This document shows, in pieces, positions 1-60,928 of a stretch of DNA of 64,000 bases (position 1 is the first letter of the stretch; each line of letters begins with the position of its first letter). The DNA is from Candidatus Oxydemutatoraceae bacterium (GTDB lineage Bacteria; Pseudomonadota; Gammaproteobacteria; Poriferisulfidales; Oxydemutatoraceae), in NCBI GenBank assembly GCA_965220085.1, contig CBDCOZ010000003.1:1-64000 (forward strand), in the 5' to 3' direction. The position numbers were made by a program, and so were the translations under genes. The notes beneath the pieces were generated by a model, which did no database searches, had not been told where the DNA came from, and saw only the letters and a program-made list of their open reading frames with translations.

Positions 1-750
1 GCGGACTTAAGGAATGTTCGGTCGGCGTTTTTGGCGTATCTTAACGGCGATGCCAACTACTACTACGACCATGCGATTGACGAGTATCCTTCCTTCGGGG
101 TCGTTTTCCCGGGCCTTTTCAATCTGTTAGCCGACATTAACGGCATTGAGTCATGTCGGGCAGGAATCATCGCTCCTCCCAGAAAAGAGCGCCTTGAATG
201 CCTGTTCGCGCAGGTTCCGCAGATGCTCGATGTCACGAATATCCCCGGCGCTGCCGTTGCGACCTTCGCTCCCATGCGGGCGCAGGCGGGCAAATTCCTC
301 CGCGTCTGCGCTACCTTTGATGATGACGCCGACAACAGCGAGAGGCGTTGCTGGACTTCCGTTGCGCCGGTCAACGCTTTTGCCACCGGCGAACCGGCGG
401 TGACGGCGGCAGACGGTACCGACCTGACCATGGACGGGCCCAATGTGAGCAGCACACTGACCGCAACCATCGGCATGATAGCCGATGCCAATGGCATCAC
501 TACCTTCTCCCCCGTCTGGCAGTGGCAGCAGGACGCCACAGCCGATGCCCCCTTCACGGACATAGCAGGCGCCACCGCTGAGACCTTCGCTCCCATGCAG
601 GAGCAGGCGGGCAAATTCCTCCGCGTCTGCGCCGCCTTTGATGATGATGACGGCGGCAGCGAGATGCGTTGTTGGACTTCCGTTGCGACGGTGGTCAGAG
701 CCAATATACGCTTGCGCTTGCGTCTCTTTCTTGAAGGGCCGTTGCGATAG
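1..750 (+). CDS. Ig-like repeat protein with C-terminal RLRLRLFLEGPLR tag (family copy 1, probably 5'-truncated by the window)
   Basis: Frame is open from base 1. It holds two copies of the module FAP..QAGKFLRVC..FDDD...SE.RCWTSV and ends IRLRLRLFLEGPLR*. Confidence 0.75.
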   Translation, partial: ADLRNVRSAFLAYLNGDANYYYDHAIDEYPSFGVVFPGLFNLLADINGIESCRAGIIAPPRKERLECLFAQVPQMLDVTNIPGAAVATFAPMRAQAGKFLRVCATFDDDADNSERRCWTSVAPVNAFATGEPAVTAADGTDLTMDGPNVSSTLTATIGMIADANGITTFSPVWQWQQDATADAPFTDIAGATAETFAPMQEQAGKFLRVCAAFDDDDGGSEMRCWTSVATVVRANIRLRLRLFLEGPLR

Positions 751-789
751 CGCGAGTACCCCGCGGCGGAGGGGAGTATTAGGGCGCGC

Positions 790-1036
790 GCGAGGCAGAT
801 ACAAATGAACGCATTCAATGAACGCTTTGACCGCGCGCTCCGGGAAGAGTTTGCGGAGTTTGAAGAGGGTTTGTTGCCGACCGATATGCGGACATTCAAT
901 AATCGTCGGATAAAGTATCCGGTATGGTTTAACGCCAAAACACCACGAAGCGCCCACACTATGGACTGAAACTTCAAGCGCCTATGACACAGCACAATGT
1001 TTGCCCCAAGCGTCCCATATGTCATGGCATCATACA
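790..1036 (+). pseudogene. IS481-family transposase C-terminal remnant with right end
   Basis: Translates to MNAFNERFDRALREEF..F...LL..D...FN.R...Y..WFNAK.P, typical of an integrase-core C-terminus. It ends ...CATACA. A homologous inverted copy lies at about 42717-42905 and a partial copy at about 22265-22345. Confidence 0.55.
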
Positions 1037-59123: not shown

Positions 59124-59342
59124 TGCCAATCCCGTCGGCGGAGTAAAGCCGACCGCCCCCGACCGCCCCCGACCATCGCTTGCGGAGTCGCAACGAAGGC
59201 AAATGTTAAACGCATCGTTTGACGAAGCGGACAAGGCGTCGCACCGCTGATCTGACTTGCAATTGCGCCGGCGCGGGCATGTCGCAAGCGGGTTTTCGCA
59301 GACGCTGCCATGGCGCCCGTCACCGATTGCGGGTGACTCGCG

Positions 59343-60928
59343 CTATCGCAACGGACCTTCCAGGAAGAGGCGCAGGCGCAAGCGCAGGCTGTCCGGGAGA
59401 TTCACCAGATCTATGGTGAGGGTGGAATCGGCGGCGGCCTCGTTGGCGCTGCCGGCAACCGAAGTGCAAAACCCCCGGGGGTCGCATGCTCTGACCACGG
59501 CGCTGACATCGCCGGTATCCCGCACCCGGTATCCGAATGTCGCATAGCCTGTGGTGGCGGTGGCGCCGTCAGCCGGATAGTACGCCAAGTTGTTCAGTTG
59601 GCCCAGGGTCAGCTCGGTGCCGACGGCTATGGCGGTATCGGCATCGTCCGCCAGCGCCAGAGTGCCGGTCGTGGGCAGGGCGGTTATGCGGATGCCGTTG
59701 ATGGTGTCGCCGCCTTCATCAGCAAAAGGGAAGTCCCCCTTGGCAAAGCGGTGCGGCTCGGCGGAGCTGGCGGTTATCGGCACCCCGACAGTGCTGGGGC
59801 CGCCAATGGGCTGGTCACTGACATGAGACACTGCGGCCCTGAAGGTCAGCGTGTCGGTCTCCCCGTCCGCATCGGTGGCGGTATAGGTGTATTGGGTCAT
59901 GGCGGATACCGCCGTGGGCATGCCGCTGATGGCGGCGGTGACGGCATCAAAGCTCAGGCCCGCAGGCAGGGCCGGGCTTATGCTGTAGGCGGTGTTATTG
60001 CCTCCGGTGGCCCGGGGCAATACCAGAATTGAGGGCCATGCGGTCAGCCAAAGTTGGTCGGTCACTGATGCATCGCCAAAATCGGGCGCGCTGTTTGCCA
60101 CCAGGTTGATGGTCATGGCGGCGGCAGGACCAGCGCCATAACCGGTAACAAACACTTCGAAATTAAAGATGTCGTAACCAGTGCCTACAGTGGCATTGGC
60201 AGGGGGTGTGTATGTGAATCCATTTGCACTAATGAATTCGCTTGCGAACACAGATGCAGGAGCTCCCGTAGGCACCAATCCGCTGATTGTAAGAGTGCCA
60301 TTGGCGGGCAACCTCGTCATGAGCACAGTAACTGGAGATGGATAATCATCACCCCCCTCGTCTTCATGACGAAAATCGCTGAGGCGAAAGCGGGATATGC
60401 GGCCAACAGGGAAGTCGACACTGCTGGGCAGGGGGTTGACATCATTGAAGTTGGTCACCGCCGCAACGGAGGTCCAGCAACGGGTCTCTTCGTTGCTTTT
60501 GTCATCGTCAAAGGTGGCACAGACGCGGACAAACTTGCCCACATGCTCCTGCAGGGGGATGAATTCGGCGGCGGTGGCCCCGGCTATGGCGGAGTAGGCA
60601 CTGTCCATGGGGGTGCCGCTGGCCGGGGCATCGGCCTCATACCAGGCCCAGGTGGGCGTGAATGTGGTTATGCCATCGTCATCATCTATGGTGCCCTGGG
60701 CTGCGGTGAGTACTCTGTCCTCATTCGGGCCGACCATGGTCAGGTCGGCGCTGTCGGCCGCCGTGACCGCCGGTGCGCCAGTGGCATTCTGCGCCTGGGC
60801 CTGCGCACAGACAACAAACAAGGCCGGCAGAACCAGCGACCAGAAGCTACGCCGGGTTAGCGTTGCCCGCCAATGCGTACGCGGGAAGGGGGGGGGGGGG
60901 TAGAAGTATTAAAGATTTTTTGTTTCAT
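59343..60928 (-). CDS. Secreted Ig/cadherin-like protein with RLRLRLFLEGPLR tag (copy 6), frameshifted at poly-C (OFF)
   Basis: Start MKQKIFNTST and a C13 tract (G13 at 60888-60900). Adding one C opens FPRTHWRATLTRRSFWSLVLPALFVVCAQAQAQ into the 60821-59343 ORF. It also has a He_PIG-like module (LPAGLSFD...ISGMPT). Confidence 0.82.

Follow-up and report, generated by a model that had tools for sequence, protein, structure and literature searches.

The first 64,000 nucleotides of contig CBDCOZ010000003.1 from a Candidatus Oxydemutatoraceae bacterium (assembly GCA_965220085.1; this whole stretch is hereafter the window) raise the question of why six genes should all end in the same peptide. The window opens contig C3, one of the three contigs of a 2.49-Mb genome with 55.8% G+C (G000; other G numbers denote relatives, and g2-g6 genera of its family). 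An initial annotation had described the six products as secreted, Ig/cadherin-like proteins with an invariant 13-residue end, and had proposed that this end was a secretion or anchoring tag or a donor strand. We found that the shared element is a 14-residue C-terminal peptide, [LIV]RLRLR[LIV]FLEGPLR followed by the stop codon (hereafter the tag), that about one gene in twelve of G000 ends in it, and that the unit is a peptide with sharp edges under purifying selection, not a DNA repeat. Judging from its sequence, the tag may be a portable address or anchor label that docks non-covalently, as an amphipathic Arg/Leu strand closed by an F-L-x-G turn, on one shared component of the envelope; we assign this reading a probability of roughly 0.4.

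In a six-frame search of the window, ..RLRLRLFLEGPLR-stop was found to close all six named genes, with stop codons at positions 748-750, 23821-23823, 35457-35459, 43073-43075, 44299-44301 and 59343-59345. The core FLEGP occurs at nine sites, namely the six gene ends and three further short copies. The back-translated pattern R-L-R-x-F-L-E-G-P-L-R-stop accordingly matched the window nine times, compared with 0 matches in each of 100 dinucleotide shuffles, and all nucleotide differences among the nine DNA copies are synonymous. The signal peptides also agree with the annotation, as the visible N-termini of the tagged genes end in ..AQAQAQ in four of five cases and in ..ADAQ in the fifth.

We then extended the six-frame search to the entire genome. 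G000 contains 218 FLEGP sites, 213 of which continue with exactly L-R-stop (TAG in 134 cases, TAA in 51 and TGA in 28); the motif is therefore almost always terminal, as the annotation had supposed. Among the five non-terminal sites, three are N-terminal and two look like mutated stops. The terminal tags close open reading frames (ORFs) of at least 150 codons in 185 of the 213 cases (150-499 codons, 105; 500-999, 65; 1000-3999, 7; at least 4000, 8), the longest comprising 15,193 codons, and the remaining 28 are remnants or tandem copies behind short frames. Together, the 185 tagged ORFs amount to 162,241 codons, or 19.5% of the genome, and a hydrophobic signal-type stretch was identified at the N-terminus of 164 of them, giants included, using a hydrophobicity heuristic. 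In the public contigs of one sequencing run, the summed word depth at positions 59357-59413 of the window reached 487 over the tag, compared with approximately 34 for the rest of the gene; this ratio of approximately 14 is expected for a sequence present approximately 200 times per genome.

The conservation of the tag was analyzed across the 185 copies. F-L-E-G-P-L-R is identical in 185/185, and at positions -12 to -8 we observed L in 180, R in 184, L in 185, R in 185 and L/I/V in 185 copies. Position -14 is L/I/V in 177/185, and -15 and the positions upstream of it are variable; in other words, the annotation was right about the shared end in 6/6 genes and one residue short in its length. The codon entropy at second positions is 0 throughout, that at third positions is 0.2-1.4 bits, and among first positions only those of Leu codons vary; here the five FLEGP codons were fixed by the search itself and the flanking LRLR[LIV] and LR codons were free. 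Past the stop codon, the entropy is 1.0-1.4 bits in the next two codons and 1.6-2.0 bits further on. Because conservation ends at the stop codon, with second positions fixed and third positions free, selection acts on the peptide, as the annotation had concluded from the window.

A recombination site, a terminator, the end of a mobile element or a neutral leftover would each make the tag a DNA-level repeat. The weak conservation of the six bases after the stop would suit such an element, as would the 28 of 213 tandem or remnant copies without ORFs and an exact 621-bp duplication in the window that ends at a poly-C tract (described below). However, this explanation is effectively refuted by the codon pattern, and we regard it as extremely improbable: 213 of the 218 sites keep one frame and one distance to the stop, and in other genera the peptide was kept while the DNA diverged.

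Cargo, chain ends and the autotransporter slot

The 120 residues preceding the tag were grouped by BLAST similarity, which yielded 14 classes without mutual similarity (65, 42, 29, 14, 11, 10, 4, 3 and 2 members, and five singletons). Among the class representatives, Pfam matches include Cadherin (20 stretches in each of two giants), fn3, He_PIG, Big_9 and PPC, and several representatives gave no Pfam match. Further tagged cargo includes a subtilase S8 with Calx-beta. The description as an Ig/cadherin-like family therefore holds for only part of the cargo, which also comprises subtilases and PPC-repeat proteins.

Structure models were computed with AlphaFold2 (AF2) for two tagged proteins. In the model of P0001 (409 aa; 32-row alignment; model mbdad28f90d3a; predicted local distance difference test score, pLDDT, 86.5), the last strand spans residues 389-392 and the tag is coil, with a pLDDT of 69 and then 49. 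In the model of the last 300 residues of a 14,215-aa cadherin giant (pLDDT 86.8), the last strand spans residues 272-283 and residues 284-300 are coil. In a Foldseek search, the P0001 model grouped with RTX-adhesin extender repeats and cadherins. The models and the 14 unrelated preceding classes indicate that the tag is a free-standing portable module, predicted to be disordered in isolation, and not the ordinary final strand of the preceding domain, in agreement with what the annotation had assumed.

A tag unpaired in monomer models would also suit an assembly role, in which tags would pair with one another, or supply a strand to domains of other tagged proteins, and thereby zip the repertoire into a coat or fibre. 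The five alternating hydrophobic positions of the tag resemble the donor strands of chaperone-usher and type V pili. We nevertheless consider such zipping highly unlikely, because the N-termini of the cargo are diverse, with no common acceptor domain visible, and because the arginine ladder would be expected to disfavour in-register stacking. No acceptor emerged for the donor strand or common anchor that the annotation had proposed.

The tag is also used at the N-terminus. Three proteins of G000 (C1:23868-25292, C1:36358-38001 and C3:1171407-1173515) begin with a near-identical signal peptide, a few residues, an intact tag and a Gly/Ser linker; two are PPC-repeat proteins (PF04151 with 72.7 bits in the one of the two that was scanned) and one is a putative protease. 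This N-tagged protein, P0020 (547 aa), is without a Pfam or NCBIfam match, and we take it to be a trypsin-like serine protease from motifs recognised by eye. Its family is N-tagged in G000 and C-tagged in the relatives G007, G009 and G004, and in the tagless genus g2 one homologue ends in a tail of the hydrophobic-helix type and another in nothing recognisable. The tagging of the same cargo at either terminus fits better with a docking element than with a C-terminal secretion signal. A different end is seen in some large secreted proteins of the relatives (G001 of g2, C1:946276-948081; G007, C1:960306-963353), where a hydrophobic helix and a basic tail follow a Gly-rich stretch; this end has the appearance of a classical sorting signal, yet it matched no NCBIfam model.

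We further compared P0001 with 1.84 billion representative proteins using phmmer, which returned 3,516 hits. Among the best 150 hits, 148 of which were inspected, 18 end in the tag and approximately 19 long homologues end in a last strand of the outer-membrane protein (OMP) type (..RLQARLRW and similar). The autotransporter beta-domain PF03797 was detected in 3/3 of the barrel-type homologues scanned (50.1, 41.8 and 45.9 bits; cut-off 26). For example, the window gene at 22807-23820 aligns to the autotransporter P0110 from the signal peptide to the last passenger strand with 44-46% identity; past the end of the passenger, P0110 continues into an Ala-rich linker and a barrel, and the window gene into the tag and a stop codon. 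No tag-like motif was found in the 19 barrel-bearing homologues. Conversely, PF03797 gave no hit at E ≤ 0.001 in G000 and none above the cut-off in the 19 genomes of the family. A decayed barrel tail is located at C3:835474-836034 of G000, out of frame behind a family gene, and a second at C3:1518606-1518761, directly downstream of a tag and its stop. A weak PF03797 hit at C2:34995 falls on a complete 455-aa protein, which was read as a FadL-type OMP from its sequence alone.

The passenger family of the window has 107 matches in G000, compared with only weak Ig-level hits in the relatives. These results are consistent with a scenario in which the family has long had the tag system, the G000 lineage acquired an autotransporter passenger family whose cis barrel was swapped for the resident tag, and more than 100 copies then arose. 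Relatives of P0110 were also sought in metagenomes, where none of 28 pattern matches was confirmed. The annotated secretion or anchoring role thus gains indirect support from a tag in the slot of the autotransporter linker and barrel, but no reader of the tag was found (see below). A more far-reaching reading is a barrel-less relative of type V secretion, in which the tag would be a minimal strand acting in trans on one communal outer-membrane barrel, BamA or an unrecognised one, and approximately 200 interchangeable, largely phase-variable passengers of up to 15,000 residues would share one translocator and anchor; we consider this decidedly doubtful.

Variants in relatives and the search for a reader

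The exact G000 form of the tag was found 211 times in G000 and 0 times in 40 relatives. In a word-based search of the last 40 residues of P0001 against 5.8 billion proteins, the 18 candidates scored out of 86 all lay on G000's own contig, with lengths of 224-716. We therefore relaxed the pattern stepwise, pairing each relaxed form with a reversed-pattern control. F-L-E-G-P-L-x-stop was present in 8 of the 53 genomes of the order, and a pattern with E/Q and P/A allowed in 11 of 53. The generalised form R-h-[KR]-h-[FY]-L-x-G-x-x-x-stop was present in 14 of the 19 genomes of the family, with 216 matches in G000, 25, 17, 8, 5 and 0 in the genomes of g4, 14, 45 and 7 in those of g5, 1 in g6, 5-12 in g3 and none in the four genomes of g2; G008 and all four g2 genomes are tagless. 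In the 34 genomes of the other three families, 0-2 hits were obtained, which is the control level.

In the sister genus g3, giant ORFs end in ..IRIRVKVFLEGPLQ, and the tails read in relatives include ..RVFLEGALE, ..FLEGALQ, ..KVFLEGPLQ, ..KVFLGGMVR, ..VRLKVLLGGATR and ..LRLKVFLGGMVR. Within one genome, nearly all copies belong to one or two variants. F-L-x-G is invariant across genera, and Arg/Lys and Leu/Ile/Val alternate strictly over nine residues in every lineage variant. The tag can accordingly be called invariant, as in the annotation, within G000, but not among the relatives, which carry variants. In a scan of a genome collection with at least 22 matches, those listed comprised 18 from four records of the family and four chance matches in other phyla, and the sole Bacteroidota match among those listed was a chance ORF of 14 codons. 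The annotation had also supposed a likeness to a 'KVFLEGP' strand of some Bacteroidota domains; the string is a tag variant of the relatives of G000.

The strict alternation of basic and hydrophobic residues in every variant would suit a direct anchor to the membrane or lipopolysaccharide (LPS) without a protein receptor, the arginine face lying on lipid A or core phosphates and the leucine face in the outer leaflet. Such an anchor would also be expected to work at either terminus and to leave no correlated partner gene to be found. However, the invariant F-L-x-G and the 185/185 identity of F-L-E-G-P-L-R are more specific than a generic amphipathic binder needs, and the crossing of the outer membrane by the cargo would be left unexplained; we consider this anchor unlikely.

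We searched for a component that might read the tag. G000 has a full gsp-type operon of the type II secretion system (T2SS) with a 702-aa secretin, a second secretin and one TolC. Searches for CsgG, sortase (PF04203) and exosortase (PF09721) gave 0 hits in G000 with positive controls, and a search for ShlB (PF03865) gave 0 hits with a control that was also silent, as was the control of a search for Slam. PF01103 finds only BamA, one per genome in 19/19 genomes of the family, which argues against a TpsB transporter of two-partner (type Vb) secretion. By a heuristic, approximately 430 proteins of G000 are candidates for export or an outer-membrane location. A crude screen for OMP-like proteins yielded 14 candidates, of which 13 were scanned against Pfam: TonB receptors, BamA, porins and CopB were recovered, two had no Pfam match, and an LppC lipoprotein, a penicillin-binding protein, an L,D-transpeptidase and an NMT1-like protein were non-OMP hits. 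PDZ proteins, as possible readers of C-termini, are encoded at only four loci, which were read from PDZ number and length as two DegP-like, one Ctp-like and one RseP-like. Co-folding of BamA (residues 345-765) with P0001 (residues 300-409), carried out without control runs, gave a score of 0.00, which counts neither for nor against docking.

Four candidate readers were rejected on their distribution. The T2SS secretin P0019 occurs in 19/19 genomes of the family, tagless ones included, and BamA, the sole Omp85, is likewise present once in each of the 19. The protease family of P0020 is present in the tagless G001 and was not found in the tag-bearing G016, G018, G003 and G002. P0170, an acidic OMP without a Pfam match, is present in three of the four g2 genomes and in G008, and was not found in G016, G018, G012 and G005. 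Around the tagged genes of the low-copy relatives G005, G012 and G003, twelve loci of 20 kb were compared, and they have no neighbouring gene in common.

With respect to secretion, the tag could be an outer-membrane translocation signal only, most simply for the T2SS, with no role in holding the cargo. The complete gsp-like operon with its 702-aa secretin represents the only general Sec-dependent route across the outer membrane that was detected, no autotransporter barrel, second Omp85 or CsgG was found, and the tag took the place of a translocator domain. However, every one of the 19 family genomes has the T2SS, the 5 tagless ones among them, and a targeting signal that works at either chain end would be unusual. 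Moreover, T2SS signals are not known to take the form of linear terminal peptides, and cargo of 4,000-15,000 residues greatly exceeds the known T2SS substrates. We therefore regard a pure translocation signal as rather unlikely.

The docking of the tag on a shared envelope component could proceed as follows. Cargo carrying the tag would first be exported by Sec; the tag strand, with a leucine face and an arginine face and closed by the F-L-E-G-P turn, would then dock by strand addition onto one shared component of the outer envelope, and the docked cargo would be displayed and held non-covalently on the cell surface. The tag would thus do in trans what a barrel does in cis. Docking would need a free chain end, and for this reason either terminus would work.

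Several observations weigh against this proposal. The role of the tag is deduced wholly from sequence, and the cargo is placed on the Sec route by a signal-peptide call that uses a crude measure of hydrophobicity. The search for a reader yielded none, every candidate tried being universal or uncorrelated with the tag; in particular, the g2 genomes (0/4) and G008 are tagless yet carry the same general secretion genes, so that a dedicated reader, if any, is not pinned down. A search of the order's 52 other genomes did not recover the barrel, and the direction of change, from barrel to tag, would rest on two relics. Moreover, the cargo may not stay on the cell but be released into the medium.

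Should the tag serve surface display, one fifth of this symbiont genome would depend on an undescribed outer-membrane sorting route, one that handles megadalton adhesins and has displaced autotransporter barrels. Such a route would be relevant to the export and retention of very large Sec-dependent proteins in Gram-negative bacteria. The tag would moreover provide a 14-residue handle with which the surface proteome of an uncultured sponge-symbiont family could be listed from sequence, and possibly a very small display tag.

Poly-C tracts and tagged loci of the window

A poly-C tract of 9-28 nucleotides (mostly C13-C28) lies inside the open frame of 79 of the 185 tagged ORFs, and most of the 90 C/G runs of at least 9 in G000 are in tagged genes. 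Typically, an AGGAG resembling a ribosome-binding site and an ATG with its short conserved leader come before the tract, and the signal peptide comes after it; among the 82 ORFs containing at least 7 consecutive C, the median distance from the tract to the signal-peptide core is 57 nt. As assembled, 19 of the 79 tract genes have the upstream ATG in frame and 50 have it out of frame, whereas in the other 10 no ATG lies within 75 nt; these counts come with the caveat that homopolymer lengths in assemblies are unreliable. The relatives have the same poly-Pro leaders. No length variants of the tracts were seen in the public contigs, and 0 raw reads matched at approximately 1% sampling. This arrangement probably reflects slipped-strand phase variation of a very large surface repertoire, and contingency tracts on 79 tagged genes fit with surface-exposed products. 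The approximately 80 switches suggest that a mutualist here varies a large surface repertoire stochastically, as is best known from pathogens.

The tagged genes of the window illustrate these features, and four of them carry tracts. The first (1-750, plus strand), whose 5΄ end lies beyond the window, has its tag at 706-747 and only a weak ZirU/Ig-type match. The second (22909-23823, plus strand; tag at 23779-23820) has leader ATGs at 22909 and 22924, a C17 tract at 22949-22965 that is in frame ('ON') and a signal peptide ending ..VVCAQAQAQ. The third, a stop-to-stop frame at 33909-35459 (plus strand; tag at 35415-35456), has the same signal-peptide end, a C19 tract at 33930-33948, upstream ATGs out of frame ('off' as assembled) and Ig-type Pfam matches below the cut-off. 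The sixth (59343-60908, minus strand; tag at 59346-59387) has upstream ATGs out of frame, a tract at 60888-60900 (G13 on the plus strand), a signal peptide again ending ..VVCAQAQAQ and a match to He_PIG (PF05345, 39.7 bits; cut-off 24).

The two genes between them are adjacent on the minus strand. The upstream one (44299-45171; tag at 44302-44343) has a tract at 45123-45143 (G21 on the plus strand), an upstream ATG out of frame, a signal peptide ending ..GANRADAQA and a TGA stop, which the ATG of P0001 (43073-44302; tag at 43076-43117; signal peptide ending ..IVSAQAQAQ) overlaps as ATGA at 44299-44302. The poly-C-switched upstream gene may control the translation of P0001 through this overlap.

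The second and third genes are each preceded by a copy of the 621-bp block (22345-22965 and 33326-33946); the copies are 100% identical and end exactly at the poly-C tract. Copy 1 contains a minus-strand tag remnant at 22374-22412 (27 codons) and the plus-strand leader of the next tagged gene up to the tract; copy 2 contains a minus-strand remnant, also of 27 codons, at 33355-33393. The duplication suggests a recent recombination or conversion event whose breakpoint fell within the homopolymer. A further tag with its stop lies in tandem at 23843-23881 (plus strand), 58 bp downstream of the tag that closes the second gene, in another frame and without an ORF (28 codons). These three extra copies are debris. 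Elsewhere in G000, the 3΄ ends of tagged genes are similarly repeated head to tail, in 2-4 copies 58-168 bp apart (C3:513729-514211, 908943-909461 and 1303686-1303940, in addition to window 23843-23881), and such repeats give rise to tag copies without ORFs.

Otherwise, the window contains housekeeping genes, two IS1595-family transposases and DNA methylases. The two transposase ORFs (36195-37130 and 45296-46231) are 311 aa long and have identical Pfam scores, and the distance from each to a tagged gene is approximately 0.7-1 kb. Four DNA methyltransferase genes, one of the C-5 and three of the N6/N4 type, and a gene for a GHKL-ATPase protein are interspersed among the tagged genes (29698-30777, 41316-42656 and 50087-51920), and these clusters are possible restriction-modification or defence islands.

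Comparison with known sorting systems

NCBIfam and Pfam models of sorting domains gave no hit on the six window proteins, and no NCBIfam hit was obtained on the tails of the relatives. The motif strings of the tag were absent from the literature searched, with the exception of one unrelated duck-liver proteomics paper; the parts of the Porisulfidus literature available to us contain no mention of the tag, and a keyword search on sorting signals of sponge symbionts returned only unrelated cell biology. The view of the annotation that the tag matches no described signal therefore stands for those tested here (NCBIfam, Pfam, sortase, exosortase and literature motif strings).

As with LPXTG, PEP-CTERM and GlyGly-CTERM, the tag is a short C-terminal label common to many unrelated secreted proteins of one genome and restricted to a lineage. 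However, it has neither an LPXTG-type motif nor the hydrophobic helix of sortase substrates, and it likewise lacks the motif and helix of PEP-CTERM proteins; neither processing enzyme was found in the searches described above, and PEP-CTERM models gave no NCBIfam hit at E ≤ 1. GlyGly-CTERM, the signal of rhombosortase, would differ in its Gly-Gly and helix, both lacking in the tag, which gave no NCBIfam hit here either; this comparison covered the motif, the helix and the NCBIfam models.

The C-terminal domains (CTDs) of the type IX secretion system (T9SS) of Bacteroidota resemble the tag as modular C-terminal addresses for the surface attachment of large adhesins and proteases. T9SS CTDs are folded beta-sandwich domains of approximately 70-100 residues from another phylum, whereas the tag is conserved only over its last 14 residues, is coil in the two AF2 models and has no NCBIfam or Pfam CTD hit. 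Type I (RTX-type) secretion signals, which are read by an ABC/MFP/TolC system, belong to proteins lacking a Sec signal peptide, whereas 164 of the 185 tagged proteins have an N-terminal signal-type stretch by the heuristic used; of that system, the search covered TolC, which is present once. With the beta-signal of OMPs and the donor strands of chaperone-usher and type V pili, the tag shares, as judged from pattern, a terminal strand of alternating hydrophobic and polar residues that would work by strand addition and for which a free chain end matters; in the tag, however, the aromatic residue stands short of the chain end, on the arginine face.

The tag thus appears to be a variant of the terminal sorting or anchoring signals that departs from LPXTG, PEP-CTERM, T9SS CTDs, type I signals and the type Va barrel in their defining features; its scale, its family-wide variants, its use at the N-terminus and its replacement of a barrel are newly seen here. 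The closest positional counterpart is the type Va autotransporter beta-domain (PF03797) with its linker. The tag comprises 14 residues compared with approximately 280, cannot form a 12-strand barrel, ends in ..GPLR and not in an aromatic residue, and also works N-terminally. Nevertheless, in homologous Sec-exported passengers the two occupy the identical place behind the last passenger domain, and they probably serve the same end, that of bringing a passenger onto the surface.

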